Shown here: positions 1 through 60,664 of the stretch, piece by piece | How the letters are laid out: every line of letters starts with the position of its first letter | Position numbering within the stretch: the stretch's first letter is position 1 | Program-made: the position numbers and the translations under genes | Notes under the pieces: model-generated | Databases searched by the model: none | What the model was told of the DNA's origin: nothing | What the model saw: only the letters and a program-made list of their open reading frames with translations | DNA from: Blastocatellia bacterium | GTDB taxonomy: Bacteria > Acidobacteriota > Blastocatellia > HR10 > J050 | Reading direction: 5' to 3' | Length of the DNA stretch: 64,000 bases | Assembly (NCBI GenBank): GCA_026985075.1 | Contig: JALSQX010000053.1 | Location: 92,773 to 156,772, forward strand

Positions 1-135
1 AACGCATATGGGATCTCGCACGAGCGGCTTGCGCGGGCTCGCCGAGAGAGCGGATTGGGCGAGTTCAATGAGTGGGCTGGTGGGGCAAGGTGTGTATCTC
101 TCCCTGGCGATCAATCATCGTGAAATAGACGGACG

Positions 136-1971: not shown

Positions 1972-2009
1972 CCCTCGATCAAAGCAGAGGATAGAGAATG
2001 TCGCGCCGC

Positions 2010-3488: not shown

Positions 3489-3739
3489 CTCGTCTCGCGC
3501 TCGATCAAGTCCAGGATATGGGCAATGGAATTCAGTTGACCGGGATCGATCCCCCGCTCCGAGAAGTCGATACCATACTCCTGCTCGAGGTATCCCACGA
3601 TCTCCAACACAGCCAGAGAATCGATGAGCCCCGATGTGATGAGTCCCTGATGTTCATCGGTAATATCCAGAGGCCGGTCGGGTCTTCGAATCGTTTGCAA
3701 GAACTGGATCAATTTTGCCTTATGCGCGGCTCGATTCAT
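3485..3739 (-). CDS. Acyl/peptidyl carrier protein (DltC/ACP-like, phosphopantetheine attachment site)
   Basis: 84-aa product MNRAAHKAKLIQFLQ...ITSGLIDSLAVLEIVGYLEQEYGIDF with the carrier-protein DSL(A/V) Ser motif. ATG at 3739-3737 overlaps the ligase stop (ATGA). The track ORF's upstream extension to 3901 is not used. Confidence 0.7.
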   Translation of the reverse strand: MNRAAHKAKLIQFLQTIRRPDRPLDITDEHQGLITSGLIDSLAVLEIVGYLEQEYGIDFSERGIDPGQLNSIAHILDLIERETR

Positions 3740-5265: not shown

Positions 5266-5378
5266 CTTCTCCTCCTTTCGCCCGCCCGAATGATGGCCTC
5301 GACGTGGCGGCTGATCATCTTACTCGCTCAGAAGCGCAGACTCAATGGTCCACCCGCCACCTCCCGTGCTGGACGGGC

Positions 5379-7373: not shown

Positions 7374-7910
7374 ACATCCAAGCACTCCTCACCGCCAGAG
7401 AAAATCTCCTCGTCGGCGGTCACTCTCGATCCGAGGGGACTGTTTCCTATATCATCCTCATCGAGAAAAATCAAGAGCAAGGCGTCGTTCTTTGAGGAGG
7501 CGCTAAGAGCAGTGCGAGAAGGAACGCCGAGGCAGAGCCGTAAAGAGAGGTTCTTTTGAAGTTTCCCGCCTTTCACAACTCCTGTCCCGTTGATGCCGCA
7601 CCGGCGAGGTCGTCGATGAGTTAGCGAAAGAGTGGGCAGAGTGGTCGTATACCCTTTGGCAACCCCCTCGGAGTTCCGAGAGCGTGATGAAGCAGGTCAC
7701 TTCATAGAGAGGAGAACCCATCTCCGCGGAACGAGAGATACCGCGATGGCCGATGGAATGAACGGGCCACCAGCGGCCAATGCCCCCTCTCCACGAGCAG
7801 AAGACCATCGGCCGACTGGTGGTCGTGTCGCATGCGATCATCCTCGGCCCGTATGGCGGTTCGTCATACGCCATTGGCCGACGGATGGTCGTGGCCCATC
7901 TGGACTGTCG

Positions 7911-8309
7911 TCAGAATGCCCCATCGAGGATGTCCAAGGCTCCTTCGGGCAATGGTTCGACCACTTTCACCTCGATGCTCCCCGTCTGGAAGGGAGAGTT
8001 CGGTTCCAATTCCACGACCAGCCGCCCTCGGCCGTTCTTCATGGTGATCGTGCCCATTTCGACGTCCTGCTCTCCATCGTTGACCACGACCATGAATTGT
8101 GTGCCATCGGGCACATCGACCCGCACGCGCACCCCAAACAGAGGCGTCCCCAAGAGCTGCCCGCGAGCCGCCTGACCGATGGCGTTCATCTGCTGGCCCG
8201 CGTCAGTGGGTACAAGCACGATCTGCTCGATGCTCGTCTTCTGAGCGACAGCGACGACGCTTCCAATAGGCACGACGAGAGCGAGTAAGGCGAACGCGAT
8301 CTTGTTCAT
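7911..8309 (-). CDS. Hypothetical small secreted protein (signal peptide)
   Basis: ATG at 8309 is preceded by AGGAGG. N-terminus MNKIAFALLALVVPIGSVVAVAQ is signal-peptide-like. No family recognised. Confidence 0.5.
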   Translation of the reverse strand: MNKIAFALLALVVPIGSVVAVAQKTSIEQIVLVPTDAGQQMNAIGQAARGQLLGTPLFGVRVRVDVPDGTQFMVVVNDGEQDVEMGTITMKNGRGRLVVELEPNSPFQTGSIEVKVVEPLPEGALDILDGAF

Positions 8310-8703
8310 CTGTCCCTCCTCATCAGAATTTTGGAGAGCCAAGAGCAGCAAGGCCTCGTCATCAACCGCCTCGATCCTCTCACTCCTTCGGGCGGTTATA
8401 TGGAGAACTGCATTGACGCAGCATGCTCTTTGCTCTCGCCCCATTCGTAAGCAAGGCTCGTGCCACTTGACATGAAATCGTCTCGCTGGGCCGTTTGTAG
8501 CGGAACATCAACAGGTTATCGCCGGAAAGGCGATCGTCCTTGAGGCGCGATGTGGCGCGAGACGTTTCTGATCTGAAACAATCGTTCGCTTCACCCTGTG
8601 AAAGAGAGATGTCCTCAAGAGTCCATTCGCCAGGCCACGCGTGAGTTGAGAGCACTGAATGAGGCCATGCGGATCAGTCCTCGAGCGACTCGGTCGTGAA
8701 CAA

Positions 8704-9777
8704 TTATATTCGATATCTCACCTTTCGGCGGGATGACGCCGGTTCCAGATCGAGGTTATGCAGCTTCAATCCGGCGACGGCGGTGAGGGCGAAGTCCGAG
8801 TGCTCGCCTCGCCGGAGTTTGGGATAGGCGGCAGCAGCGATCATCGCCGCATTATCGGTGGTCAGCGGGGGACTGGGGTAATACAGTGGAATGCCCACGC
8901 GTTCGGCAAATGCCCTCGCTTCGCGTCGCAGCTGGCGATTGCAGGCCACCCCCCCAGCCAAGACGAGCGTCTGCGGCTTGGTGGTGGCTACGGCACTGGC
9001 GACCCGGTCGAGGAGTGTGCGAACTACGGCGCGTTGAAAACTGGCGATCAGGTCGAGGACGTCCTGCGGCGGATGCTCGGGATCAACGACCGGCTTGATG
9101 CCCTTCTCCTCCACGTATCGGCGGACGGCCGTCTTCAATCCGCTGAAGCTGAAATCGAGCGTGCCATCGGTCATTCGCGGGATGGTGAAGGAGACGGCTT
9201 CCGGATTCCCTCGAGGTGAGAGGCGGTCGATGACGGGTCCGCCGGGATAGCCCAAGCCCAGCAACTTGGCGACCTTATCGAAGGCCTCTCCGGCCGCATC
9301 ATCGCGCGTATGCCCGAGGCGCTTATACTTCTCTGCCGCGGGCATCCAGTACAATTCCGTATGTCCCCCCGATACGATGAGGGCTAATGCGGGATACGCG
9401 ATCGGCGGGTTCTCGAAGACGACCGAATAGACGTGCCCTTCGAGATGATTAATGCCGACGTAGGGCTTTCCCAGCGCATAGGCGACCGACTTGGCGTAGC
9501 TCAGTCCCACCAGCAACGATCCCACCAATCCTGGGCCATATGTCACGCCGATGCCATCGATCTGGGAGAAGGTGACGCCGGCCGCCTGGAGCGCCTGCTC
9601 GACAACAGGCACGATGTTCTTGATATGCTCGCGCGAAGCCAACTCGGGGACGATCCCCCCATAGGGTCGATGGGTGTCTACCTGGGAAGCAACGATATTG
9701 GAACGGATCACCCGACCTTGTTCGACGACGGCCGCCGCTGTCTCGTCACAGGATGACTCGATGCCCAGAATCAGCAT
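8704..9777 (-). CDS. tsaD: tRNA N6-adenosine threonylcarbamoyltransferase TsaD (Kae1/Gcp family)
   Basis: [19 protein letters not shown]-terminus and HxEGH metal site ([10 protein letters not shown]), with full-length Gcp-like architecture. Confidence 0.9.
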
Positions 9778-10895
9778 CTCTCCTCCTCGCTCTGATCCTC
9801 CCGTTCACGAGGAGCACTCGCTCGGCGAGCGGATGGGAGCTCAGCGCACCCTGAGCCCTCCACCAACGCTCGAAGACTCTCCGTATAGGGAGGACGCGCC
9901 ACGCCCCGTTCGGTGATGATGGCCGTGATGTATCGATGCGGTGTCACATCGAAAGCGGGATTGGCGACCTCCACGTCTTCCGGAGCAATGACTTGATCTC
10001 TGATCCGGATCACTTCGTCACCGGACCGCTCCTCAATGGGGATCTCATCGCCGGAAGCGAGCGACAGGTCGATGGTCGAAGTGGGCGCCGCCACGTAGAA
10101 CGGAATATGGTGTTCCTTGGCCAGCACGGCCAGCGAATACGTCCCAATTTTATTGGCGACGTCTCCGTTGGCCGCGATGCGATCGGCTCCTACGATCACA
10201 CAATCGACTTTCCCCTGGCGCATGAAGTAACCCGCCATGTTATCAGAAATGAGCGTCACCGGGATGCCATCCTTCATCAGTTCCCAGGCGGTCAATCGCG
10301 CTCCTTGCAAGAACGGGCGGGTCTCATCGGCCAACACGCGCACCTTCTTCTGTTGCTCCACTGCCGCGCGAATGACGCCGAGCGCCGTTCCATAGCCAGC
10401 GGTGGCCAGCGTCCCGGCATTGCAGTGCGTCAGCACAGTGGCCGCATCGGGGATCAACTCGGCACCATATCGTCCCATCTGCCGATTGGTTTGAATGTCC
10501 TCTTCATACATCCTCTGGGCCTCTTCGATCATCCGCCGTTTGATCTCATCCAGCGGCAATCCGTCCCGCCTGGCGCGAACAAATGCGCGCTTCATGCGCT
10601 CAATGGCCCAGAACAGATTGACGGCTGTCGGACGGGTGGTCTCCATCACCCGACAAATACGCTCCAGTTCCCGCTCCAACTCCTCCACTGTGCTCACCTG
10701 AGCGTCTCGCACTCCCAGGGCGATTCCCATTGCCGCCGCCACGCCAATGGCTGGCGCCCCTCGGACGACCATATCCTTGATGGCTCGGGCCACCTCCTGG
10801 TAGGTCCGAAAGACGGGATAGACTTCCTCGGTGGGCAGTTTCCGCTGGTCGATCATCCGAATCCCTTCATCGGTCCACTCGATCGTCTTGATCAT
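9771..10895 (-). CDS. mtnA: Methylthioribose-1-phosphate isomerase (eIF-2B alpha/beta/delta-like) MtnA
   Basis: [21 protein letters not shown]...[15 protein letters not shown]...[18 protein letters not shown]. Start chosen at the MIKTIEW Met; the track ORF extends to 10982. The 3' end overlaps the tsaD start by 7 nt. Confidence 0.8.
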
Positions 10896-46777: not shown

Positions 46778-48133
46778 ATGGCCATCGAATTCACGCTCCC
46801 CGAGCTTGGTGAGCATATTGAGTCGGCGGAAGTGGTTCGGGTGCTGGTGTCGGTGGGGGACCGGGTGGAGAAGGATCAACCCCTGCTGGAAGTGGAGACC
46901 GACAAGGCGAGCATCGAAGTCCCCTCCCCGGCCAATGGTACCGTCACTGCCCTCCACGTCCGCGAAGGAGATACCGTCCGCGTCGGTCAACCCCTCCTCA
47001 CCCTGGAAGAAACGACCGCTGAGGCTGGAGAGAAAGCGGAAGCAGGGGTGGAGACGAAGGAGGCGGCCAAGGTGATGATCCGGGAAGAGCGCCGCGTCGA
47101 CCGGGAGCCGATCGTGGAGCCCACCGAGCCGAGTGCGACGAGCACGCCATCGAGTCGGCGTGCCGCGGTCGTCGAGTTCACTCGCCGCCCACCTCGCCCC
47201 GCGACCCATGCGGAGGCGGCCAGGCGAGTCATCCCGGCGGCGCCGTCAGTGCGCCGGCTGGCCCGCGAGTTGGGCATCGACATCCAGGACGTTCCCGGTT
47301 CCGGGCCCGGCGGTCGCATCTCCGTTCAGGACGTGAAGAATTATGCCCGGCGCCTCCTCGGCGAGCGGAAGGCGGAAACGCCCGCCGCCGCTCTCCCCAC
47401 CGCTCCTCCACTGCCTGATTTCAGTCAGTGGGGTGAGATCGAACGCCGGCCCATGTCCAACGTCCGGCGCATCACGGCGGAGAACATGAGCCGGGCATGG
47501 GCCCTCATCCCCCACGTCACCCAACACGATAAGGCCGACATCACCGAACTGGAGCGCTTGCGCAAACAATTCGCCCCTCGCGCCGAGGCCGCCGGAGGGA
47601 AACTGACTATCACGGCCATCATTCTCAAAGTCGCCGCCGCCGCTCTGAAAGCCTTTCCTCAGTTCAACACCAGTCTGGACGTGGCCAACAACGAGATCAT
47701 CTATAAGAAGTATTATCACATCGGCGTCGCCGTGGATACGGATCGGGGATTGCTCGTCCCGGTCATTCGCGATGTGGATAAGAAGAATCTGATCGAACTG
47801 GCCGTCGAACTCCATCACATGGCCGAGAAGGCGCGGGCGCGAAAGCTCACCGTGGATGAACTGCAAGGCGGCACATTCAGCATCACCAATCTGGGTGGCA
47901 TCGGTGGGACGTCTTTCTCGCCCATCGTCTACTATCCTCAGGTGGCCATTCTGGGCGTCTCCCGCGCTCAGTGGGAGCCGGCGCTCATCGACGGTCAATT
48001 CCAGCCGCGATTGATATTGCCCCTGTCGCTCTCTTATGACCATCGAGTGATTGACGGAGCGGATGCCGCACGCTTTCTCCGATGGATCGCCGAAGCTCTG
48101 GAGCAACCTTTCCGGCTCATCCTGGAAGGATGA
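46778..48133 (+). CDS. aceF: Dihydrolipoamide acetyltransferase (PDH E2)
   Basis: Lipoyl domain (VETDKASIEVPSP). E3-binding domain (PSVRRLARELGIDIQDV). Catalytic domain with DHRVIDG. Confidence 0.9.
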   Translation: MAIEFTLPELGEHIESAEVVRVLVSVGDRVEKDQPLLEVETDKASIEVPSPANGTVTALHVREGDTVRVGQPLLTLEETTAEAGEKAEAGVETKEAAKVMIREERRVDREPIVEPTEPSATSTPSSRRAAVVEFTRRPPRPATHAEAARRVIPAAPSVRRLARELGIDIQDVPGSGPGGRISVQDVKNYARRLLGERKAETPAAALPTAPPLPDFSQWGEIERRPMSNVRRITAENMSRAWALIPHVTQHDKADITELERLRKQFAPRAEAAGGKLTITAIILKVAAAALKAFPQFNTSLDVANNEIIYKKYYHIGVAVDTDRGLLVPVIRDVDKKNLIELAVELHHMAEKARARKLTVDELQGGTFSITNLGGIGGTSFSPIVYYPQVAILGVSRAQWEPALIDGQFQPRLILPLSLSYDHRVIDGADAARFLRWIAEALEQPFRLILEG

Positions 48134-48301
48134 GATCATGGCGGGTGATCGGTGATGAATGGAGACCACGGGGCGAGAAGCGATCAACGAGCCGGTCTCC
48201 CCACATCGGCAGCGTGTTCTCCAGGTTCGCGTTTCGTGCTTTACGTATCCGGACGCACAGGTTACGCTTCATCGTTCACTGATTTCGGACTGAGGAGCTG
48301 A

Positions 48302-49729
48302 ATGATGGCAGAAAACGTCAGATCGACGCAAGTCGCGGTCATCGGTGGTGGTCCTGGTGGCTATCCGGCCGCCTTCCTGGCCGCCGATCTGGGATTGCAG
48401 GTGACGCTCATCGACATGGAGCCGAACCCTGGCGGCGTCTGTTTGTATCGCGGATGCATTCCCTCCAAGGCGCTCCTTCACGTGGCCAAAGTGATCAGCG
48501 AAGCGCGTCACGCCGCTCGCTGGGGAGTGACGTTCGCCGAGCCTCGGATTGATCTGGACCGACTCCGGGAGTGGAAAGAGAGCGTCGTCCAGAAGCTGAC
48601 CGGCGGACTGGGACAGCTCTCCAAGCAGCGTCGCATCACCTATATTCAAGGCCGAGCCACGTTCCTCGATCCTCACACGCTGAGAATCGAGAATCAGTCT
48701 GGCGAAGAGATTCTCAAGTTCGAGCGGGCCATCCTGGCCACCGGATCGCGTCCGGCGACGCTCCCCAATCTCTCCATCGACAGCCCGCGCATCATGAACT
48801 CGACCAGCGCCCTGGATCTGCCCGACATTCCCAAGACCATGCTGATCGTCGGCGGTGGCTACATCGGGCTGGAGCTGGGAACCGTCTATGCGGCGCTGGG
48901 GACGAAGGTCTCCGTAGTGGAAATGATGCCCGGGCTCATACCGGGACTCGATCGGGATCTGGTCTCCATCCTGACCAAGCGACTGGAGACGATCTTCGAG
49001 GCCATCATGCTCAACACTCGCGTGGTGGGCATGAAGGAGGAGAAGAAGGGCATTCGGGTCAAATTGGAAGGCCTTCAGGTGAAACAACCGGAGCAGGTCT
49101 ATGAGCGCGTGCTCATCTGCGTGGGGCGTAAACCGAATTCTCAGGATCTGGGTCTGGAGAACACCAAGGTCGAAATCGATCGACGCGGATTCATTCAAGT
49201 CGATGCTCAACGCCGAACGGCCGAGCCGACGATCTACGCCATCGGCGACGTGGCTGGCGAACCGATGTTGGCTCACAAAGCGACGCACGAAGGCCGCGTG
49301 GCCGCCGAAGCCATCGCCGGGCGACGCGTCGCCTACGAGCCTCGGGCCGTCCCCGCCGTCGTGTTCACCGATCCGGAGATCGCTTACTGCGGTTTGACCG
49401 AAACCGCGGCGCGCGAGCAAAAACGCCCGATTAAGGTCGCCCGATTCCCTTGGGCGGCATCAGGTCGGGCGGTGACGCTGGATCGCACCGATGGATTGAC
49501 CAAGTTGATCATCGATCCGGAGACGGAGCGCGTCCTCGGCGTGGGCATCGTTGGACCGGGCGCCGGCGAGTTGATCTCCGAAGGCGTCCTGGCCGTCGAA
49601 ATGGCGGCGCTCGCTTCCGACGTCGAATTGAGCATTCATCCTCATCCCACGCTCTCGGAAACGATCATGGAAGCGGCGGAAGCGTTCTATGGTCATAGCA
49701 CGCACGTCTATCGCCCGAAGAAAAAATGA
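48302..49729 (+). CDS. lpdA: Dihydrolipoyl dehydrogenase (E3)
   Basis: FAD motif GGGPGGYPAA, redox-active GGVCLYRGCIPSK disulfide, and a C-terminal HPHPTLSE interface motif. Confidence 0.92.
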   Translation: MMAENVRSTQVAVIGGGPGGYPAAFLAADLGLQVTLIDMEPNPGGVCLYRGCIPSKALLHVAKVISEARHAARWGVTFAEPRIDLDRLREWKESVVQKLTGGLGQLSKQRRITYIQGRATFLDPHTLRIENQSGEEILKFERAILATGSRPATLPNLSIDSPRIMNSTSALDLPDIPKTMLIVGGGYIGLELGTVYAALGTKVSVVEMMPGLIPGLDRDLVSILTKRLETIFEAIMLNTRVVGMKEEKKGIRVKLEGLQVKQPEQVYERVLICVGRKPNSQDLGLENTKVEIDRRGFIQVDAQRRTAEPTIYAIGDVAGEPMLAHKATHEGRVAAEAIAGRRVAYEPRAVPAVVFTDPEIAYCGLTETAAREQKRPIKVARFPWAASGRAVTLDRTDGLTKLIIDPETERVLGVGIVGPGAGELISEGVLAVEMAALASDVELSIHPHPTLSETIMEAAEAFYGHSTHVYRPKKK

Positions 49730-49908
49730 GCGGCGAAGGAGATGAATATCGAGCGAAAGCGTGAGGCCTCCTCGGCTCGGACGAACGGGAGGAAAGCGGC
49801 TGATGCCCATCGTCAGCCAGTGATCACCTGGGTGAACCATCGCGGGTCACGATCGATCTCCCGGAGGACGAGGGTGTACGGACTTTCGATGGACGCCCCG
49901 CCGAATGG

Positions 49909-49937
49909 TTGCTCCATGATATGGCGCGAAGTATACT
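49909..49937 (+). promoter_or_regulatory. Candidate promoter TTGCTC-N17-TATACT upstream of the glutamate dehydrogenase gene
   Basis: Sequence match, about 70 nt upstream of ATG 50006. Confidence 0.3.
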
Positions 49938-50005
49938 AACTGGGTGCTCGAGCGTGGCCGAGATCTGGCACGTGGGATATCTCCGACGCGAGCAATGAGG
50001 AACCT

Positions 50006-51421
50006 ATGGGCAAAAGGCATCTCTCGTTTTACGAATCGGTATTAGCCTTTTTTGATCGAGCCGCCGCTCATACGTCCTATGATCGGGGACTGCTCGATCA
50101 AATCAAGTACTGCAATAGCGTGTACCAATTCAAGTTCCCGCTCAAGCACGAGGATGGGACGATCGAAATCATCCAGGCATTCCGGGTGGAGCACAGTCAT
50201 CACAAGCTGCCCGTCAAGGGGGGAATCCGCTACAGCGAGATGGTCAACGAGGATGAGATCAAAGCGTTGGCGGCATTGATGACGTTCAAATGTGCCGTCG
50301 TCGATCTCCCGTTTGGTGGCGCCAAAGGCGGCGTCAAAATCGAACCACGAAAATACACCGTCAATCAACTGGAACGCATCACCCGCCGCTACACCGCCGA
50401 ACTCGCCAAGAAGAACTTCATCGGACCTGGCGTCGACGTGCCCGCTCCGGATTACGGTACGGGACCGCGCGAGATGGCCTGGATTCTGGACACCTATCAG
50501 GCGCTCAATCCGAGTATTGATTCTATCGCCTGCGTCACCGGCAAACCGGTCACCCAGTATGGCGTCCGGGGCCGAACCGAAGCCACCGGACGCGGCGTCT
50601 TCTACGGCATTCGCCACGCCCTCAGTTATGCCGAAGACATGAAAAAGCTGGGGCTCCAGCCGGGCATCGAAGGAAAACGCGTGGTGGTGCAAGGATTGGG
50701 AAACGTCGGATATCATGCGGCGAAATTCCTCCAAGAAGCGGGAGCCCTTCTCGTCGCCGTGGCCGAATATGATGGGGCCATCTATAACCCCGATGGATTG
50801 GATGTGGACGAGGTGCAACAACATCGTCGCGAGACGGGGACGATCCTGAATTTTCCCGGTGCCAGGAATTTCGCCAGGAACACCGACGCCCTGGAATACG
50901 AATGCGATATTCTCATTCCGGCGGCTCTGGAACGGCAAATCACCGAAGAGAACGCTCCTCGCATCCGCGCCAAGATCATCGCCGAGGCCGCCAATGGACC
51001 GACGACCATCGAAGCGGAACAGATGTTGCTCGAGCGCGGCGTGATGATCATTCCCGATCTCTACCTCAATGCCGGAGGCGTCACCGTCTCCTATTTCGAA
51101 TGGTTGAAGAACTTGAGCCACGTGCGTTTCGGTCGGTTGAGCAAGCGATTCGAAGAAGCATCCCGCAGCGCCCTCCTGGAATCGATCGAGCGCATCACCG
51201 GGAAGCATCTCTCGCCGGAGGAGCGGAAACTCATCGTGCGGGGCGCCGACGAAATCGATCTGGTCAATTCCGGCCTGGAAGAAACGATGATCACCGCCTA
51301 CGATGAGATTCGCGAGACGATGCTGCGGACGCCGGGCGTGACCGATCTGCGCACCGCCGCCTTTCTCAACGCCATCAATAAGGTCGCCATTGCCTATCTG
51401 GAACTGGGCATCTTTCCATAA
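50006..51421 (+). CDS. gdhA: Glutamate dehydrogenase (Glu/Leu/Phe/Val dehydrogenase family)
   Basis: Catalytic-Lys region [15 protein letters not shown] and a Rossmann GLGNVG motif. Confidence 0.9.
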
Positions 51422-51500
51422 TGCCGCGGAGAGGGAGACGGAAACGAGCCGAGATGACGACGGAGATTCTCTCTCCCTGCGCCATTGAGGAGGTCATCTG

Positions 51501-53180
51501 ATGCGACTCGGGATACTCATCGGCAGTTTCATCCTGATCACCGCGTGCACAGCGCCCACCGAATACGACATCGTCATCCGTCACGGCACCATTTATGACG
51601 GCAGTGGATCGCCGCCCTTCATCGGCGATGTCGCCATCGACGGAGACCAGATTGTGGCCGTGGGCTCTCTGGAGCGGGCGCGTGGGCGCCTGGAGATCGA
51701 TGCCACCGGCCTGGCCGTGGCGCCCGGTTTCATCAACATGCTCAGTTGGGCCACCGAGTCGCTCATCGAAGATGGTCGCGCGCAGAGCGACATTCGCCAG
51801 GGAGTCACTCTGGAGGTGTTCGGCGAGGGATGGTCGATGGGTCCGCTGAACGAGCGGATGAAAAAAGAGCTCATCGAACAACAAGGCGACATCACATACG
51901 ATGTCCAATGGACGACGCTCGGCGAATATCTGGACTATCTGGTCAGTCGCGGCATCTCCCCCAATGTGGCTTCATTCGTCGGCGCGACCACCGTGCGCAT
52001 TCATGAGATCGGTTACGAGGATCGTCCGCCCACACCGGAGGAACTCGATCGCATGCGCCAACTCGTCCGCCAGGCCATGGAAGAGGGCGCGCTCGGCGTC
52101 GGCTCATCGCTCATCTATGCGCCGGCCTTTTATGCCCGGACCGATGAACTCATCGAACTCTGCAAAGTGGCCGCCGAGTATGGAGGCATGTACATCTCGC
52201 ACATTCGCAGCGAGGGGAATCGCTTGCTGGAAGCGGTCGATGAACTGATCACTATCGCGCGCCAGGCGCATATCCCGGCCGAGATTTACCATCTGAAGGC
52301 GGCGGGGCGATCCAACTGGAATAAACTCGATGCCGTGATCGAGAAGATCGAGGCGGCGCGCGCCGAAGGGCTCCGCATCACCGCCGACATGTACACCTAC
52401 ACGGCGGGGGCGACCGGTCTGGATGCTGCCATGCCGCCATGGGTGCAAGAAGGCGGTCTCAAAGCCTGGATCGAGCGATTGAAAGATCCGGCCATTCGCG
52501 CCCGCGTCAAACGCGAGATGCGCACGCCGACCGATGAATGGGAAAATTTGCTCCTGGCCGCGGGATCGCCGGAGAACGTCTTGCTGGTGAGCTTCAGGAA
52601 CGAAAAGTTGAAGCCGCTGACCGGAAAGACGCTGGCCGAAGTGGCCCGCCTGCGCGGCACGTCGCCGGAGGAAGCGGCTATGGATCTGGTCATCGAGGAT
52701 GAGAGCCGCGTCGGCACGGTCTATTTCATCATGTCCGAAGAGAACATCCGGAAGAAGATTCGACAACCGTGGGTCAGTTTCGGTTCGGACGCCGAAGCCC
52801 CGGCGCCGGAAGGCGTCTTCCTGAAGTCGAACCCGCATCCACGGGCATACGGGAATTTCGCTCGACTGCTCGGCAAGTACGTGCGCGAGGAGAAGATCAT
52901 CCCTCTAGAAGAAGCCATTCGACGGCTGACCTCGCTCCCGGCGGAGAATTTGAAGCTGGATCGGCGCGGGCGATTGAAGCCGGGATATTTCGCCGACATC
53001 GTCGTGTTCGATCCCGACACCATCCAGGACCACGCCACCTACGAGAATCCTCATCAGTATGCCACCGGCGTGGTGCACGTTTTCGTCAACGGCGTTCAGG
53101 TCCTCAAAGACGGCGAGCATACTGGCGCCACGCCGGGACGAGTGATTCGCGGTCCCGGATGGAAGGGGCGTCGTCAGTGA
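51501..53180 (+). CDS. Amidohydrolase-superfamily protein, D-aminoacylase (N-acyl-D-amino-acid deacylase)-like, lipoprotein signal
   Basis: Strong D-aminoacylase-family similarity (GVGSSLIYAPAFYARTDELIELCKVAAEYGGMYISHIRSEG). Lipobox LITAC. The canonical HxH and Cys metal ligands appear to be replaced. Confidence 0.75.
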   Translation: MRLGILIGSFILITACTAPTEYDIVIRHGTIYDGSGSPPFIGDVAIDGDQIVAVGSLERARGRLEIDATGLAVAPGFINMLSWATESLIEDGRAQSDIRQGVTLEVFGEGWSMGPLNERMKKELIEQQGDITYDVQWTTLGEYLDYLVSRGISPNVASFVGATTVRIHEIGYEDRPPTPEELDRMRQLVRQAMEEGALGVGSSLIYAPAFYARTDELIELCKVAAEYGGMYISHIRSEGNRLLEAVDELITIARQAHIPAEIYHLKAAGRSNWNKLDAVIEKIEAARAEGLRITADMYTYTAGATGLDAAMPPWVQEGGLKAWIERLKDPAIRARVKREMRTPTDEWENLLLAAGSPENVLLVSFRNEKLKPLTGKTLAEVARLRGTSPEEAAMDLVIEDESRVGTVYFIMSEENIRKKIRQPWVSFGSDAEAPAPEGVFLKSNPHPRAYGNFARLLGKYVREEKIIPLEEAIRRLTSLPAENLKLDRRGRLKPGYFADIVVFDPDTIQDHATYENPHQYATGVVHVFVNGVQVLKDGEHTGATPGRVIRGPGWKGRRQ

Positions 53181-53272
53181 TGTCCCGAAGCATGGTCCGC
53201 TGATCGGGTGGATGGTTTCGGCGACGACGTTTCATCCGCGGCGGTCTACTGTATGGGCTCGATGGGCATTCC

Positions 53273-54088
53273 ATGAGTGCGGCAGAGATGAACCAACGTG
53301 AGCACCTCGACACATGCTCTGGTTCAGCTCGGGATCTATTTTACTTCCGTATCAAGGGCGTCCTCGCCCGAATATTCAGTCGCCTGCGCTGTGATGTCGA
53401 AGGGCTGGAATATGTGCCTCAGAGCGGCCCGGCTATCCTGGTGATGAACCACACCGGCTGGGAAGAGATTCTCTGCGCCATCCTGATCGTACCCCGTCCG
53501 ATGAGGATTATCGGTATTCGGGAATTGATGTATCTCGATGATCCCGTGGGACGGGCGCGCATTTTTGATTCGGCGTATGGACGGAGCTTCGGCCCCGTTC
53601 GTCGTGGACTCACTGTTCTGCTGGGAAACGCGCTCGGTGGAGTGGTGCGCCGCCGGCTGCGGGAGTTCGGGTTCATTCCGGCGCGCGTATTCACACCGGC
53701 GTGGCCGCCGCTTCTGGGGAGCAACGGATGGCGCGAGACTGTAGCGGCGCTGGCGGCTGGCGAGCTCGTTCTGCTCTTTCCCGAAGGGGGGTACAAGCGA
53801 GATGGGGTGATGCGACCGTTCAAACCCGGTCTGGGGATGCTGGTGCGCTGGCTCAGCCGCCGTCATCTGGATGTTCCTATCGTGCCGATTGCACAACGGA
53901 CGGCGGGATGCGTTTCCTGGACGCTGGGCCATCGATACACGCCGCGACTCGTTTTCGGTCCGCCACTCACATTCACGTTCAATGGGGAGAACCGGCGGAC
54001 ATTCGATGAACGTGTGGCGCGCACGGTTCAGGATCACATCGATGCTCTTCTCCGTCGCGCCTGGCCCGATGCGCCGTCACAGACATAA
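53273..54088 (+). CDS. Lysophospholipid acyltransferase (PlsC/LPLAT)-family protein with HX4E variant motif
   Basis: Motif I NHTGWEE (HX4E rather than HX4D) and motif III FPEGG. Confidence 0.55.
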   Translation: MSAAEMNQREHLDTCSGSARDLFYFRIKGVLARIFSRLRCDVEGLEYVPQSGPAILVMNHTGWEEILCAILIVPRPMRIIGIRELMYLDDPVGRARIFDSAYGRSFGPVRRGLTVLLGNALGGVVRRRLREFGFIPARVFTPAWPPLLGSNGWRETVAALAAGELVLLFPEGGYKRDGVMRPFKPGLGMLVRWLSRRHLDVPIVPIAQRTAGCVSWTLGHRYTPRLVFGPPLTFTFNGENRRTFDERVARTVQDHIDALLRRAWPDAPSQT

Positions 54089-54182
54089 CGTTCGGCCGGA
54101 TTTGATCGAAGAGCTTTGGTTTTGCCCATGATGCGCTTTAGGCGTATATTTGCGTTACTGAGGTCGTGTATGTAATCGTTAG

Positions 54183-55114
54183 ATGGCATTGAAGCTGGTA
54201 GAGGCAGCTTATATGAGGCGTCCCAAATACAAGTGCCAAGATTTTCTAAATGAGCTTGCTGTGGGCCAAGCGTATGGTATTTTTGTTGATGATACTGGCG
54301 CTCCTGGTCTCACTGATGCACCAGCAAACTTCCATCCCAACCGGAAATCTTGGGTTGCCGTTCCACCATGGCACATGCCTGAAGTTCTTAAGCAGCTTCC
54401 TCGTGCACTATAGGAACTAGAAAAGCTGACAGGGGCCGGAGAGCTTCATTTTGCGGACATTTATGCAGGCCGAAGGGAATTCAGGGAAGTTGATCTCCGG
54501 GTTCGACGTGCGCTGTTTGAGTTTATGGCACATATTTTCTCAGTATATCAATTCCCTATCATTGTTCAGACCTTTGATCCGAAAACGTTATCTTATCTTC
54601 ACTCCCGTAGCCAAGGAGAATTGCCGGACCGCCTTCCGCCCTTTGATTTTACCAAGCCAGAAGACGCAGCCTTTTTTTCTTGCTGATCCGATTGAGGTTG
54701 TTTATGGAGCAAACGCCGGAGTATCCTAAAGTAAAAGCGCATGTATTCGTTGACGAAGGTTGGAAAAGCAATGGTGTTGCAATTAAAATCCCAATATTCG
54801 AAGATGTGTTCAATGATGGATTGGTCTGTTTTTGCCGGAGTTCAACTATCTTGCCTATCCAGCTTGCAGATTTTGCTGCATTCGCTCTAAATCGCACTCA
54901 GCTCGTATGTGGGCGCAACAAACGAAGCCCGTTGGATATGCATTTACTTGAGATTTTATCCAAAGTTGCGAATAACTATGTGAATATTGAGAAAAAGATT
55001 GTTTCATTAGTAGAAGAAGGTCCAATGATTACCTTGGTTGGTACGCGTCCCACGGACCTTATTAATCGCCATCTAACGCCCGCTGCAGTCAACCCGCCTC
55101 CGCCAGCGCTCTAG
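54183..55114 (+). pseudogene. Disrupted gene: one reading frame interrupted by an in-frame TAG (54411) and a frameshift at a T7 run (54672-54678); possible DUF3800-like product
   Basis: Frame 0 is open and protein-like from 54183 to 54686 apart from a single amber codon. A +1 T in the T7 tract would fuse it to the frame-2 ORF 54680-55114. Motifs IFVDDTG / VFVDEGW and IQLADFAAFA suggest the DES...QxxD signature of DUF3800. Confidence 0.4.
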
Positions 55115-55216
55115 CGGGCGGCCGAGCTGGTCGTCAGACCGTTGCTCGCAGGCTCTTCTGCGGATAGAATAACATTAGAATAATACCTGTGCTGTGTAAC
55201 AAGAGTGGACAAGGAG

Positions 55217-55444
55217 ATGAAGAGCAAAATGCAAGCTTATCGAGTCGAAACCACAGTTACCCAAGACGGTACTCTCATCATCAAAGGAGTTCCCTTTCGG
55301 GCAGGAACGAAGGTGGAAGTCATCATCCTCAGCCACTTTCGTAAAGCTGCAAAGGAAGTACGCTATCCCTTGCGAGGTAAGCCGATTCGGTATCTGGCGC
55401 CATTCGAGAGTGTTGCCGAGGATGAGTGGGAAGCACTGTCATGA
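55217..55444 (+). CDS. vapB: VapB-like antitoxin (AbrB/SpoVT-like swapped-hairpin candidate)
   Basis: Small acidic C-terminal tail (SVAEDEWEALS). The stop overlaps the vapC start (ATGA). Start uncertain among GTG 55205, ATG 55217 and ATG 55229. Confidence 0.5.
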   Translation: MKSKMQAYRVETTVTQDGTLIIKGVPFRAGTKVEVIILSHFRKAAKEVRYPLRGKPIRYLAPFESVAEDEWEALS

Positions 55445-55833
55445 TCATGCTTGACACACATATTTGGGTTTGGTGGGTGCATGGAGATTCACATCTTACC
55501 CAAACTCAAATGGAAGCAATTGCTGCACACGAGGAGGATGTGATTGGTGTGAGTGCGATTTCATGTTGGGAAATAGCTAAACTAGTCGAGTATGGTCGTC
55601 TGGAATTGCCCTGTCCACTGGAGGAATGGTTTGAACAAGCGTTGAGTTATCCCGGGATGCACTTACTCCCATTAACGCCGGAAATAGCCATTGAGTCAAC
55701 GCGGCTGCCGGGAAAATTTCATCGTGACCCTGTGGATCAAATCATCGTGGCCACGGCCAGGGTGTCCAATTGCCCACTTGTGACTTCGGATCAGAGGATT
55801 TTGAACTACCCGCACGTTGTAACGATAAGGTAA
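55441..55833 (+). CDS. vapC: PIN-domain ribonuclease toxin VapC
   Basis: MIMLDTHIWVW (Asp4 equivalent), CWEIAKL (Glu), and a third acidic residue in VTSDQRIL. Classic 4-nt overlap with the antitoxin. Confidence 0.8.
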   Translation: MIMLDTHIWVWWVHGDSHLTQTQMEAIAAHEEDVIGVSAISCWEIAKLVEYGRLELPCPLEEWFEQALSYPGMHLLPLTPEIAIESTRLPGKFHRDPVDQIIVATARVSNCPLVTSDQRILNYPHVVTIR

Positions 55834-56182
55834 TCTGCCTAACATCGCGTGTAGCAGACTCACTGTGCTCAGTTGCCTGACTCCCCTGCTGGCACGCCAC
55901 TGATGCTCACAGCAGGCGGAGCAGCCCCTACTATGGATTGAGAAACGTGGTTGCCAATCATTGAGCTTCCAGGCTTTAAGCCTAGAAGCTGGTGAATTAT
56001 TCCTGCGGCCGAAAAATCGATGGTTCGATGAAGAAAAACAACCACGCCCGCCTGACTACCGCAATGGGACATGCCATTGGACGGTTAGCCGAGGTTTTGA
56101 ACTCAATTTCTCCTCTTCACTCTCATCAAGCGATTCGAAGACGAACTACGTAGCCGCGTCAGTCATCAATGGGGATTCGCTT

Positions 56183-57463
56183 TCATCGCCATGCGGCCAG
56201 CGCCGTACGAACGCGACGCCGTTCGCCCACCTCCGTCCACGCGATCACTATCTGAGATCCCGATCGTACCATGCGGGGAAAACCGCTGGCGCGCGACGAG
56301 ACCAATCCGACGGCTCGGACCGGTTCGCTTTGCTCCCCATCGGGAGCGACGCGCCGTATGAATAATCCAGCCTCGCCTCTCTCCTCCTCGGCTTCCATCC
56401 AACTCACTAACGCCGATCCATCATCCAGCATCACCGCATCCACTCGACCCAGCGGCGCGCCTCGATCGACCCTCACGGGCGGAGCGAACGTCCGCCCGCC
56501 ATCAGAAGAAAAAGCGACCTCGACGCGCCTCTTCCCATCCGCTGCCGTGAACCAGGCGACGACCACGCGCTCTCCTCGGGCATCAATAGACGGTCCATTC
56601 ACTGGACAGGCGGGGATTCGCCAACCATCACTATGAACCGGTCGCGGCGCGCTCCACGTTCCTCTTTCGTACCGAACGACGAAAATATCTCGCACCTCCT
56701 GCGGCGAGCGATCGCGATATACGATCAACGCTCGATCTTCGGTCAGCCGAACGGCCGACGTCTGGCAACAGTCGCAGACCAGATCATCGACGAGCATCTC
56801 AGGTCCCCACGTCCCATCGAACCTCAACAGCCGCGCGCGCAATGTCATCTCTTGCTTTCCTGCGGCGAACCGACGTCCATCGAGCCAGACGGCGAGCCAC
56901 TCTCCCCGACGCATCGGTAATAGAGAGACGAAGCCATGTTCGGTCGGCGTCCCATCTTCATGAAGCTTCTTCGGTCGAGTCCAGGTTCGACCACCATCGG
57001 TGGAATGACTCACCATGATCCCGTAGGCATAGGGCTGTCCTCCCGTCCGCACGAGCCAATGAGCGATCAACCGACCATCTTCGCCGACGGCGAGAGACGG
57101 AAAATCGGCCCAATTGACGAACCAGTTTTCGCCCTCGGCAATGGTGTGCGGCGCCGACCAGGCGTCCGCTCCAGGCCTATAGGTGGCGAATCGCAGCGCC
57201 TCTCGCCCCTCATCGCCCGATTCGATCCAGCAGATATACACAACGCCATCCGGCCCCGTGGTGAGATTGGGCTCGCCACTTCCTGGCGCTGACCGAAGGT
57301 CGAGCGCACGAAACGATAAAGAGAAGCCGGGATCATCGATCTCCGACACCTGGACGCATCCGGATGAACTCGCCAGGATCATGAAACCGAACATCCCAAT
57401 GCCGATCCAACCGAACAGGTCAACCAGCACAGAGACGCCAGCAAGCGTACATCGTCGTCGCAT
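56183..57463 (-). CDS. BNR/Asp-box repeat (sialidase-like beta-propeller) lipoprotein
   Basis: Asp-box repeats SHSTDGGRTW and AFSSDGGRTF. Lipobox LASSSGC after ATG 57463, which is preceded by GGAGG. Confidence 0.65.
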   Translation of the reverse strand: MRRRCTLAGVSVLVDLFGWIGIGMFGFMILASSSGCVQVSEIDDPGFSLSFRALDLRSAPGSGEPNLTTGPDGVVYICWIESGDEGREALRFATYRPGADAWSAPHTIAEGENWFVNWADFPSLAVGEDGRLIAHWLVRTGGQPYAYGIMVSHSTDGGRTWTRPKKLHEDGTPTEHGFVSLLPMRRGEWLAVWLDGRRFAAGKQEMTLRARLLRFDGTWGPEMLVDDLVCDCCQTSAVRLTEDRALIVYRDRSPQEVRDIFVVRYERGTWSAPRPVHSDGWRIPACPVNGPSIDARGERVVVAWFTAADGKRRVEVAFSSDGGRTFAPPVRVDRGAPLGRVDAVMLDDGSALVSWMEAEEERGEAGLFIRRVAPDGEQSEPVRAVGLVSSRASGFPRMVRSGSQIVIAWTEVGERRRVRTALAAWR

Positions 57464-57480
57464 GCCATCCTCCACATCTC

Positions 57481-58617
57481 TCAACCGGCGGCTCCGCGGC
57501 CCATCACCTTCCGAAATGCCTGCGCGAAAAGCTCCATCTCCTCCATCGTTCCCAAACTCAGTCGACACCAATTGGTGTATGGTGGGAAGGGTCGCCCGAC
57601 GAGCACGCCGTGCTCTTTCATCGCTTGGCGAAATGCCGTCACCTCTCGTCCGAGATGAAAGAAGACGAAATTCGTCTGCGAGGGGATGTACCGGCGACCG
57701 AGTTCGCCGAGAACCCTGTAGAGATACGTTCGGGCTTCGGCATTCTTTCGACGACTGAAGTCCTGAAACGACGCATCCTGATAGCTGGCAATCGCGGCCC
57801 GCAACCCGAGAATGTTTACGCTGTGATTGGTTCGAAACTGGCCGAGACGGGCGATGATGTCCGGACGAGCCAATCCATACCCGACGCGCAATCCGGCCAG
57901 CGCATGAATCTTGGAGAACGTGCGCGAGACGATCACGTTGTATCCTTCCCGAACCAGATCGATCATCGACGCATATTCTCTCGCCTGGACATAATCGTGA
58001 TAGGCCTCATCGACGAGAACGACCGTTCGGCGCGATATGGCCCGGCAGAACTCACGCAGTTGATCTCCAGGGAGAATTCTTCCGGTGGGATTATTGGGGT
58101 TACAGACGAACACCAACCGCACGGCTTGCGTGATGCGCCGATCCATGGCATCGAGATCGATCTGGAAATCAGCGGTGAGCGGGACGCGATGCACGTAAGC
58201 GCCAATCGTGCGGGCATAATGTTCCAACCCCTCATAGGTCGGATAGGCCGTCAATACCTCTCCTCCTTCCAGGCCGTAGGCTACGCCAGCCATGCGAAGG
58301 ATCTCGTGCGAACCAGCGCCCAAGATGACGTGATCCGGTGAGACGCCCTCTTTCTCAGCGATGAGCCTCTTCAATTCCTCATAATGACCGGAGGGATAGC
58401 GACATCCTTCATCGAAAGCGGTGATCATGGCGCACCGCGCGCGGCGAGAAGGACCATATGGGTTCTCGTTACTATGGAGCCGGATGAACGGCTGGTCGCG
58501 CTCGGGCGATGGCGGAGCGATCCATTCGGCGCCGGAGACATCCCGCCGAACCGCCAGGCTGGCCGCGGCCACAGCACTCACTTTCAACCATTGGCGACGA
58601 TTCATCGGGAGTTTCAT
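57481..58617 (-). CDS. Tat-signal-bearing PLP-dependent aminotransferase (HisC-like, class I/II)
   Basis: Twin-arginine motif NRRQWLKVSAVAAASLA. Aminotransferase class I/II similarity, including a candidate PLP-Lys (SRTFSKIHALAG, Lys assigned from sequence only). Confidence 0.8.
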   Translation of the reverse strand: MKLPMNRRQWLKVSAVAAASLAVRRDVSGAEWIAPPSPERDQPFIRLHSNENPYGPSRRARCAMITAFDEGCRYPSGHYEELKRLIAEKEGVSPDHVILGAGSHEILRMAGVAYGLEGGEVLTAYPTYEGLEHYARTIGAYVHRVPLTADFQIDLDAMDRRITQAVRLVFVCNPNNPTGRILPGDQLREFCRAISRRTVVLVDEAYHDYVQAREYASMIDLVREGYNVIVSRTFSKIHALAGLRVGYGLARPDIIARLGQFRTNHSVNILGLRAAIASYQDASFQDFSRRKNAEARTYLYRVLGELGRRYIPSQTNFVFFHLGREVTAFRQAMKEHGVLVGRPFPPYTNWCRLSLGTMEEMELFAQAFRKVMGRGAAG

Positions 58618-58997
58618 CGGGGACCTCCTGAGATGGGCTGTCGGTACGACTGGCTAAGCTACCAAAAACCCGGAGAGAACGCAAGCGGAGAAGACTCGTT
58701 CAGAACGACGACGAGGGGTGGGAGTCCCGGAGAGGGGCGCTCCAAGGCGCCAACTCTCTCCCACGCTGAGGAATGCCGTGAGCCAGGAAGCGAACCCTAT
58801 GGTCTGTAGGGAAATGCATCGCATGCCTCATCGAGACGCCTCATCACTGGAGAGGCATGACGCGCCACGGCCCGCTCCTCCATCTGCAGACCAGAACTCG
58901 GTGGCGACGAGCAGGCTTCATCGACCTCCGCTCTCGGTGCCGATGAGCGCTCTTTGACCGGATTGATCTCCTCTGGAAGTGTGGCATAATAGTGCCT

Positions 58998-59783
58998 ATG
59001 CCGAAACAGATCGCCGTCGGAGATCAAATACTGCTCTACTCCCCGGATCGGAAGACGTTTCTCATCACGGTGGCCGCCGATCGCACGTTCTCGACGCACC
59101 ATGGTCAATTGCTCCATAATGACATGATCGGCAAGCTCTACGGCGAGATCGTTCACAGCTCGACCGGCCAGCCCTATGTGATGCTCGACCCCACGTTGGA
59201 AGATCGCATGATGAAGGTCAAACGCCTGACCCAGATCATCTATCCCAAGGACGCCGGGCTCATCCTGATCAAGACGGGCGTCGGATCGGGGATGCGGGTC
59301 GTCGAATGTGGCGCGGGCTCGGGCGCGTCGACGTTGGCTCTGGCGCACGCCGTGGCTCCCGACGGCCGCGTTTATGTCTACGACCGGGAAGAGCGCTTCC
59401 TGCGAAATGCGCAAGCCAATGTCGAGCGAGCGGGCTACGGAGATCTGGTGGAATTCAAGATCAGAGATGTCGTCGAGGGATTCGATGAACAAGACGTTGA
59501 CGTCGTCCTGTTGGATCTTCCATCGCCCTGGGAAGGCGTGGAGGCGGCCACTCGAGCGCTCCGTGGCGGCGGGCGCCTCGCCTCCATCCTGCCCACCTAT
59601 AACCAGGTCGAGCGCCTGGTCGAGGCACTGGAGGCCGCCGGGTTCGTCATGATCGAAACGTTAGAAGTCCTGCTTCGCCACATTCTCGCCCGACCGGGCA
59701 AGACGCGACCGTTCGAGCGCATGATCGGTCATACGGGATTTTTGATTTTCGGACGAAAAGCCTTATGGCCTTCGCCCGAGTGA
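58998..59783 (+). CDS. trmI: tRNA (adenine58-N1)-methyltransferase TrmI (GCD14 family)
   Basis: GCD14-family N-terminal domain and SAM motif VVECGAGSGASTLALA. Confidence 0.8.
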   Translation: MPKQIAVGDQILLYSPDRKTFLITVAADRTFSTHHGQLLHNDMIGKLYGEIVHSSTGQPYVMLDPTLEDRMMKVKRLTQIIYPKDAGLILIKTGVGSGMRVVECGAGSGASTLALAHAVAPDGRVYVYDREERFLRNAQANVERAGYGDLVEFKIRDVVEGFDEQDVDVVLLDLPSPWEGVEAATRALRGGGRLASILPTYNQVERLVEALEAAGFVMIETLEVLLRHILARPGKTRPFERMIGHTGFLIFGRKALWPSPE

Positions 59784-59808
59784 ATCCCTCCGAGAAGACC
59801 TCGACATA

Positions 59809-59845
59809 CCCATCACATGGACCCGAACCCATGTGGTCTGATGGG
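59809..59845 (+). terminator. Candidate terminator hairpin after trmI
   Basis: CCCATCACATGG-acccgaac-CCATGTG(gtc)TGATGGG, followed by GGCTGATCTTTCG. Confidence 0.35.
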
Positions 59846-60211
59846 GGCTGATCTTTCGCATACTCATTCGCTCACATTATTAAAAACGCCTTGATTGCGG
59901 CTCTGTTCAGGCATTGCACGCCGGCAGCGAGCGCAACTTTATAAACTGGCGTGATCAGAACGGCAGCGCTTTTGACATCATTTGAGGGGACGACGACTCG
60001 GACGAAGAGCTGTCTTTCCGCCATCGAATGCTCGACAAGCATCGCTGGACGCCGTTCGGCAGGGGCGGCGATGACTCGAAAAGCGGGTGACTCAGCGATA
60101 GCCACACGTTGGGCTTACGAGGGGCCCGTATTGAGGAGAGGCCGGGCTCAACAGTGGCTCGTTCTCACCGCCTCAGCAGACAAGCGAGCATACAGATCGC
60201 TCGGGTTGAGG

Positions 60212-60664
60212 CTATCCGTGGGTCCCCGTCCAACGCTGTCCTGGCGGCGAGCCGCCTTCCAGATCTCGTCGAATCGCGTCCAGTAACCCATTGATGAACT
60301 GCGTCGCTTCATATGTCGAATATCGTCGAGCGATCTCGATCGCTTCATCGATGACCACAACCTTGGGCGTCTCGGGCTCGTGAAGCATCTCATACACGGC
60401 AATGCGCAAGATGTTCCGATCCACGGACGCCATGCGCGGCAACCGCCAGTGAATGGCATGCTCGGAAATGATCCGATCGATCTCCTCCAGGTGCTCCAAC
60501 GCTCCGGTGACCAGACGCGTGGCATAGCGCCGCACGCTCTCATCGGCATTCGGTCGCAGATGCTGCCAGTAGGTTTCAAATAACTCGTCGATCGGCTGCC
60601 GGGCGAACTCGTACTGATACAACAACTGCATGGCCGATTCTCGCGCTTTTCGTCTCGAGCCCAT
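60212..60664 (-). CDS. nusB: Transcription antitermination factor NusB
   Basis: ARESAMQLLYQYEF...VDRNILRIAVYEML. Start taken at the downstream ATG (60664) rather than the track's 60745. Confidence 0.85.
   Translation of the reverse strand: MGSRRKARESAMQLLYQYEFARQPIDELFETYWQHLRPNADESVRRYATRLVTGALEHLEEIDRIISEHAIHWRLPRMASVDRNILRIAVYEMLHEPETPKVVVIDEAIEIARRYSTYEATQFINGLLDAIRRDLEGGSPPGQRWTGTHG

Follow-up and report, generated by a model that had tools for sequence, protein, structure and literature searches.

What is a 2-kb segment of markedly low G+C content (GC) doing between two housekeeping genes of an uncultured acidobacterium, and by what route did it arrive there? The segment, which we call the islet (54091–56111), lies in a 64,000-nucleotide (nt) stretch of a Blastocatellia bacterium genome (GenBank assembly GCA_026985075.1, contig JALSQX010000053.1, positions 92,773 to 156,772 of the forward strand). 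We refer to this whole stretch as the window and give all coordinates within it, unless a related locus, labelled L and a number, is named. Our analysis indicates that the islet is probably a small, decayed remnant of integron cassettes in an acidobacterial chromosome, lacking an integrase and resembling the elements described as single attC sites lacking integron-integrases (SALIN) or clusters of such sites (CALIN). Sequence comparison delimits two cassettes: cassette 1, from 54178/79 to 55133, comprising a DUF3800 gene and its attC site, and cassette 2, from 55134 onwards, comprising a vapBC toxin-antitoxin (TA) operon and the first ~24 nt of an attC site. The features that make up the cassettes are as follows.

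54178–54184, plus strand: GTTAGAT, the integron core site (R') at which cassette 1 begins on its 5' side and nt homology to the L039–L042 cassettes starts.
54213–55065, plus strand: DUF3800 (RNase H-like) pseudogene, ancestral coding sequence, with 81% amino-acid and 82.5% nt identity to the intact P0001/L039.
55071–55139, plus strand: attC site of cassette 1 (attC1), matched over its full length by covariance model R1 with 39.9 bits and an E-value of 3.2e-7.
55229–55444, plus strand: vapB-like antitoxin gene, 71 amino acids, with a homologous partner 5' of the PIN gene in 76/80 related loci.
55441–55833, plus strand: vapC toxin gene, 130 amino acids, PIN domain (PF01850, 65 bits, E-value 1.2e-17, cut-off 23.6).
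55837–55860, plus strand: 5' remnant of the attC site of cassette 2 (attC2), consisting of R'' GCCTAAC and the start of L'', by homology to the L043 attC site 6399–6481.

The DUF3800 and vapBC genes were recognised as cassettes because their homology to independent arrays starts and stops at integron core sites. The closest array for the first gene, L039, is a run of small co-oriented open reading frames (ORFs), including BrnT and ParE-like toxin genes, in which each gap holds an imperfect palindrome of 60–133 nt that starts with RYYYAAC and ends with GTTRRRY, and several of these palindromes fold as the classical attC hairpin. The window and the L039 cassette match (82.5% nt identity) from the GTTAGAT core as far as that of the attC site and diverge directly past it. 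All of the DUF3800 cassettes of L039, L040, L041 and L042 open with GTTAGATGGCA, and the window's homology to them begins at 54178, not earlier; L042, independent in its chromosomal setting, shares this GTTAGATGGCA start.

To characterise the recombination sites, we built a covariance model, R1, from 15 attC sites of L039, L043, L072, L114, L115 and L119, leaving the window out, and scanned both strands of the entire window with filters off. In the source alignment the R and L boxes pair, six of the pairs showing compensatory changes, and in the related loci the model found 37 sites, of which 35 share the orientation of the query gene. Across the 64 kb, attC1 was the sole significant match, the next best having an E-value above 5, and no site was found in L002, the nearest distinct genome. 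attC1 is 80–82% identical at the nt level to attC sites of L039 and L114. Its R'' box is ATCTAAC (55071–55077), its R' box is a degenerate GTCAGAC (55133–55139), placing the 3' boundary of the cassette at 55133/55134, and its L-box stem is mostly retained. The core reads GTC at a position where GTT is invariant in 15/15 reference sites; the site is thus recognisable but probably not recombinogenic, and a scan for strict cores combined with folding found no intact attC site in the islet. The published RNA motifs linked to DUF3800 genes were also considered as attC sites, an identity that is unsupported for this attC type: Rfam gave no match at E-values up to 1 in L039, L040, L042, L043, L072 or L114, and no DUF3800 RNA motif was found in the window or the reference arrays. 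As separate observations, L114 (832–11694) and L115 are long cassette arrays with at least nine attC sites of the same subfamily, including a cassette with a vapBC homolog; one array site in L114/L115 is 82% identical to attC1, and the 83-kb contig of L114 (FWPU01001111.1) might carry the cognate integrase.

The gene of cassette 1 is indeed decaying, as the earlier note on this DNA had proposed. Three ORF fragments (54183–54413, 54451–54729 and 54680–55114) are pieces of one DUF3800 gene, whose reconstructed product is 81% identical to the intact 289-residue protein P0001. More than 200 homologs were found, many with a PF12686 match; the reconstructed protein itself passes that model narrowly (21.7 bits, cut-off 21) and has the conserved D...E...D/E...QxxD residues. 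Alignment at the nt level to two intact homologs (L039 and L042) placed four lesions: at 54358/54359, 6 nt are deleted in frame, at the cost of two conserved residues; 54411–54413 has a CAG>TAG nonsense change; and 1 nt is deleted at each of 54670/54671 and 55047/55048. The ancestral stop is the TAA at 55063–55065, and the 'PPPPAL' tail of the listed ORF 54680–55114 is read-through into the downstream attC site. Codon changes polarised by the outgroup L042 number 15 nonsynonymous and 29 synonymous on the window lineage and 5 and 24 on that of L039, a difference that is not significant alone; the pattern suggests relaxed constraint on the window-lineage gene.

Relatives of this gene occur in several other settings. 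In L042 (9920–12040; NCBI GCA_053488235.1), a second stranded DUF3800 cassette with the GTTAGATGGCA start has on its 5' side a 43-nt attC-like element, ACCTAAC...GTTAGAT, and on its 3' side a collapsed attC site, GTCTAAAC-AATA-GTTAGGC, followed by a Phd/YefM and PIN_3 TA pair; amidase, ZnuA and Fur genes are its housekeeping neighbours. More distant homologs (60–65% identity) sit in non-integron islands free of attC sites. In L136 (1–6455), as also in L137 and L138, a 64%-identical homolog stands in an island beside a gene for a large serine recombinase and one that is MauJ-like, with no attC site by covariance model; the DUF3800 family therefore moves on at least two kinds of mobile element. 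Viral contigs yielded a single distant relative, at 31% identity, and a PDB sequence search with the DUF3800, VapC and VapB proteins gave no meaningful match.

By comparison, the operon of cassette 2 looks intact and functional from its sequence. The module had been called vapBC in the earlier note, a label upheld by the 65-bit PIN toxin, the 71-residue upstream partner and the 4-nt overlap (ATGA) between the vapC start and the vapB stop. In VapC, none of the positions with at least 95% conservation across 78 homologs has changed, D5, E44, D96, D99 and D117 among them, and the ratio of nonsynonymous to synonymous divergence relative to L043 is 0.04 for vapC and 0.10 for vapB; against the NCBIfam VapC equivalog model the toxin scores 15 bits, under the cut-off of 80. 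Searches of VapB against Pfam, NCBIfam and PDB returned no match, and a Pfam domain was found in none of its 265 homologs; its gene also has an in-frame ATG at 55217 as a possible start. An AlphaFold model of the monomer has poor confidence (predicted local distance difference test score of 56).

The closest relative of the operon, in L043 (VapC 91% identical in amino acids, 79% in nt), is a cassette between canonical attC sites at 5658–5740 and 6399–6481. Homology to it covers 55221–55860 and so runs 27 nt beyond the vapC stop, through GCCTAAC and into the attC site; the remnant of that site scores a non-significant 6.2 bits under R1, and its 3' half is unrecognisable. Since an attC site lies directly 3' of the vapC homolog in only 5/80 loci (L043, L072, L099, L114 and L115), the VapC family as sampled here is only partly cassette-borne; its nearest relatives are cassette-borne. 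About 50 nt 5' of vapB, TAGAATAA occurs twice as a direct repeat (at 55165 and 55176, 11 nt apart, spanning 55165–55183), which may be a candidate -10 element and/or antitoxin operator of a cassette promoter. In L044 (1245–1295), the second-closest relative of the operon (89% amino-acid identity), a perfect 51-nt palindrome covers the vapC stop and the GCCTAAC core and looks like an inverted duplication in place of the attC site. We rejected the idea that DUF3800 and vapBC form a specific functional unit: the contexts of their homologs are independent, their closest relatives (L039–L042 and L043, respectively) are separate cassettes, the more distant DUF3800 homologs lie in islands free of attC sites, and most vapBC homologs fall outside arrays.

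The compositional anomaly that first drew attention to this locus is real and unique within the window. GC is 48.2% in 54090–56010 and 58.9% over the whole 64 kb; among all sliding windows of 1921 nt (mean 58.9%, standard deviation 2.0%), the minimum is 47.9%, in the one that starts at 54101. The islet as now delimited lies ~5.4 standard deviations under the mean and is the sole low-GC stretch of the 64 kb, where no other 500-nt block falls below 52%. GC at third codon positions (GC3) is likewise low, at 0.43–0.53 in the islet ORFs compared to 0.63–0.78 in adjoining genes. The drop in GC reported earlier therefore holds on sliding-window GC and GC3, as does the left edge given then, where homology to L002 stops at 54090; the right edge moves ~100 nt further out, to where that homology comes back at ~56112–56122.

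We subsequently compared the locus with its relatives, using the two genes that flank the islet as anchors.

53273–54088, plus strand: left flank, 1-acyl-sn-glycerol-3-phosphate acyltransferase-like (plsC-like) gene, Pfam PF01553 with 62 bits, 90% amino-acid identity to L002.
56183–57571, minus strand: right flank, gene for a BNR/sialidase-like repeat protein (Pfam BNR_2), convergent with the acyltransferase gene.

One Logan contig, L001 (SRR7968113), is 100% identical across 10.7 kb and carries the same DUF3800 pseudogene sequence. The nearest distinct genome is represented by L002, contig RFHM01000400.1 of an Acidobacteria metagenome-assembled genome. Its positions 1–6914 align with 47169–54090 of the window and its positions 7286–9862 with 56122–58694, both at ~89% nt identity, and synonymous divergence is 0.28–0.31 in three flanking genes. 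The TAA stop of the acyltransferase gene (54086–54088) lies at the left homology break (54090). Between the aligned blocks, L002 holds 371 nt of ~51% GC, with undetectable similarity to the 2.0-kb islet. More distantly, L126 and L127 share 79% amino-acid identity with the window in an amidohydrolase, 60% in the acyltransferase and 63% in the BNR protein; they keep the amidohydrolase-acyltransferase-BNR order and have no spacer at all, the last two genes converging and sharing 9 nt at their 3' ends. Because L002 has an unrelated spacer and L126/L127 have none, these comparisons indicate that the islet is a derived insertion and not ancestral, with the near-empty site at close range coming from one relative only (L002). 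An insertion between the plsC-like and BNR genes is what had been suggested before, with the proviso that relatives carrying the same region at the same composition would make it ancestral; the segment is absent from L002, L126 and L127. L003 was dropped as an empty-site reference, its synteny with the window ending at the acyltransferase gene.

Other differences were seen in the same block. The L002 BNR gene (7355–8739) matches that of the window (56183–57571) as two segments in different frames, joined at L002 position 8452, and therefore either copy would have a frameshift or a differing start region. Two intergenic stretches of the window, 58695–58920 and 59777–60215, also could not be aligned to L002 by blastn despite a synonymous divergence of ~0.29; the second is 439 nt long against 122 nt in L002, has a GC dip to ~51%, and may be another small indel or insertion. 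In L126 (3452–4112) and L127 (512–1172), a BrnT/BrnA TA pair is inserted just 5' of the amidohydrolase gene, another small TA insertion within the same conserved block.

Two stretches at the edges of the islet belong to neither cassette.

54091–54177, no strand assigned: left segment, 87 nt, 46% GC, with no homolog in any locus compared and no attC-like fold.
55861–56111, no strand assigned: right segment, ~250 nt, 52% GC, with no homolog in any locus compared.

The left segment would be either a decayed upstream attC site or cassette remnant, or old spacer, and the right segment a decayed third cassette or attC site, or again old spacer. The left segment contains a promoter-like TTGCCC-17-TATATT at 54122–54150 and has no significant similarity to the L002 spacer. 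Compared together, the segments and the L002 spacer (338 and 361 nt) gave a z-score of 2.4, the same as negative controls. In the right segment, a short attC-like GCCTGAC...GTTAGCC (56050–56090) scores 7.3 bits under R1, which is not significant, and nor was a leftward extension of the L002 homology to the GTTAGCC core. A near-perfect 12-bp hairpin, AGCTTCCAGGCTT-TAA-AGCCTAGAAGCT, lies at ~55962–55990, 3' of vapC, with no T-run after it. The possibility that 55835–56095 (261 nt) is one long attC site was rejected, since its minimum-free-energy fold leaves R'' and R' unpaired.

We also searched for the classical signs of genomic islands. ARAGORN found no tRNA or tmRNA gene in the window, and no tyrosine-recombinase box II motif was present in six frames of the 64 kb, by a regular expression rather than an intI_Cterm/PF00589 profile search; the absence of tRNA and integrase genes noted earlier is thus confirmed on this scale. 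A direct repeat of the form CGGCCG(N4-6)ATCGA had been proposed to flank the islet. It occurs three times in the 64 kb (at 54093, 56006 and 16729), where 0.61 occurrences are expected and 3/100 shuffled sequences reach three, for a pattern that was defined only after its two copies had been seen. The copies have spacers of unequal length, and the right one lies ~100 nt inside the L002 homology break; we rejected the repeat as a target-site duplication, its frequency being at chance level, its copies misplaced and their spacers unequal, and the proposal of a flanking repeat falls on the same chance-level frequency and position off the boundaries. A general repeat search returned no better flanking repeat. 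Rfam families were absent as well, both across the window at gathering score and within the islet when E-values up to 10 were admitted, and no PADLOC defence model matched any of the three islet proteins. The window thus contains none of the tRNA/tmRNA target, integrase gene and flanking direct repeats of a classical genomic island, and of the complete integron (intI, attI and Pc promoter by the array) it has no intI motif, with acyltransferase and BNR genes as the flanks. The islet had earlier been taken for a remnant of a mobile or defence island. Foreign DNA with a decaying gene and a vapBC module is what we found; the generic label is replaced by a pair of integron gene cassettes because of the independent attC model match and the homology limits at core sites.

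How might two cassettes have come to lie here? Cassettes reach integrase-less locations by insertion at attG sites (consensus GWT), loss of intI or rearrangement (PMC4889954; 10.1101/2022.09.11.507474). In the islet, an integron integrase acting at a non-att site (attC x attG, a 'secondary site') would have placed the cassettes where two housekeeping genes converge at their 3' ends, or the cassettes would have arrived as a fragment of a larger array; non-att insertion is favoured because of this location and because integrase debris is lacking. The recombination sites have degenerated since, the attC1 R' core now reading GTC for GTT, the 3' half of attC2 being gone and no foldable site remaining upstream, in line with the ready loss of attC sites of genome-inserted cassettes through slippage (PMC4889954; 10.1101/2022.09.11.507474). 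The broken cores may now block excision of the cassettes, and the intact vapBC operon may, as an addiction module, select against cells that lose the segment while the DUF3800 gene decays as a passenger. Such addiction would account for the persistence of the dead gene and of the unpurged low GC. A more speculative extension, which we regard as rather unlikely, is that the DUF3800 cassette encodes a compact nucleic-acid-targeting function in defence or addiction that is spread by integrons, that its stranding upstream of PIN TA pairs both here and in L042 is no coincidence and reflects preservation by, or cooperation with, the TA pair, and that the locus constitutes a datable attC x attG insertion with an empty site in relatives.

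Several points weigh against reading the islet as a cassette remnant. The reference arrays are identified as integrons by their attC hallmarks, because no integron integrase was seen there in a search by regular expression only, and R1 describes one attC subfamily from related metagenomic arrays rather than being the general IntegronFinder model. The support for attC2 consists of 24 nt of homology. As the 87-nt left and ~250-nt right segments match nothing, the insertion junctions and mechanism cannot be read, and, unlike in described SALINs and small CALINs, the junctions lack a clean attG (GWT) signature. With regard to timing, insertion after the split from L002 and insertion before it, with later loss or replacement in L002, are both compatible with the data.

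These points leave room for other histories, the most plausible of which, itself unlikely, is that the islet is what remains of a larger, complete chromosomal integron at this spot, which lost intI, attI and all but two cassettes by deletion. Integrase loss is regarded as one source of CALINs (PMC4889954), the two edge segments (54091–54177 and 55861–56111, with the weak 56050–56090 element) could be cassette debris, and the different, unexplained L002 DNA at the same position fits turnover of the locus. On the other hand, no intI pseudogene motif occurs in the 64 kb, no further attC site was found in the window or in L002, the distant syntenic relatives lack any spacer, and convergent housekeeping 3' ends would be an unusual home for an integron platform. 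In another history, the DNA is an ordinary genomic or defence islet brought in by, for example, illegitimate recombination, transformation via flanking homology or a since-lost transposon, and the attC site would be incidental to the insertion. This history draws on the fact that an integrase, a tRNA, insertion-sequence ends and a target-site duplication are all undemonstrated, on the uninterpretable junction sequences, and on DUF3800 homologs at 60–65% identity in non-integron islands, for example beside a large serine recombinase. We consider it improbable in view of the array homology of both genes, which is bounded exactly by core sites, the signature of a cassette unit; moreover, the content would still be integron cassettes even if the final insertion step had differed. 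That the low GC is native, the islet being intergenic or regulatory DNA that is rich in AT, evolves fast and holds small genes specific to the lineage, would agree with the other intergenic regions that are likewise too diverged between the window and L002 for blastn, and with the ~51% GC of the L002 spacer. This origin is extremely improbable and, on homology and synteny, already refuted: relatives of the genes at 79–91% identity occur among other neighbours on metagenomic contigs unrelated to this one, syntenic relatives lack the segment, and islet GC3 is far under the host range.

The cassette remnant that we favour most closely resembles the SALINs and small CALINs described by Cury et al. 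2016 (PMC4889954), Neron et al. 2022 and Loot et al. (10.1101/2022.09.11.507474). In common with these, it has chromosomal ORFs with an attC site (RYYYAAC/GTTRRRY) and no intI nearby, comprises few cassettes outside an att platform, and has attC sites that are eroding as predicted for 'domesticated' cassettes. It differs in having one detectable attC site, with a mutated GTT, next to a second that is truncated, in its uncultured acidobacterial host, and in that one cassette gene is a pseudogene. The definition of a CALIN asks for two or more attC sites inside 4 kb (PMC4889954); with one significant but degenerate site and one truncated site, the islet is formally a SALIN-like single-attC element with a second, attC-less cassette.

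TA cassettes, which PMC4889954 mentions, occur in sedentary chromosomal integrons, for example the Vibrio superintegron. As there, the islet carries a type II TA operon together with its own upstream region as a cassette, which plausibly stabilises neighbouring DNA; here, however, the TA operon is one of two cassettes in a dead remnant rather than part of a large active array, and its antitoxin belongs to a 71-residue family for which no Pfam model exists. Compared with VapBC type II systems in general, the operon shares the acidic residues of the PIN toxin, the small upstream antitoxin, the ATGA overlap and the pairing in 76/80 loci, whereas the toxin falls under the NCBIfam equivalog cut-off and has no solved-structure relative by sequence, and the antitoxin could not be assigned by sequence to a recognised type of DNA-binding fold (AbrB, RHH, HTH or Phd/YefM).

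DUF3800 (PF12686) RNase H-like proteins have been tied to type VII retrons, to a sub-branch of Cas12a2 and to 11 RNA motifs (PMC7736814, PMC10910872, PMC5737381). The islet protein belongs to the same Pfam family and has the conserved D...E...D/E...QxxD residues, but its gene stands alone, lacking a reverse transcriptase or Cas partner, and is cassette-borne and inactivated.

TA cassettes, integrase-less cassettes, attC erosion and RNase H-like DUF3800 genes as accessories in mobile and defence contexts are thus all precedented. What is new is new as instances only: the host phylum, the DUF3800 subfamily and the unannotated 71-residue antitoxin family as integron cargo, and the finding that in L042, too, a DUF3800 cassette lies stranded, its attC site collapsed, beside a different PIN TA pair. 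The locus illustrates current views and overturns none, while a vague 'islet' label gives way to a mechanism. On this reading, integron cassettes can land and fossilise at ordinary chromosomal sites in Acidobacteriota, where integrons have been little studied, and the comparison sets side by side, within a single locus, a TA cassette under purifying selection and a decaying neighbour with its decaying recombination sites.

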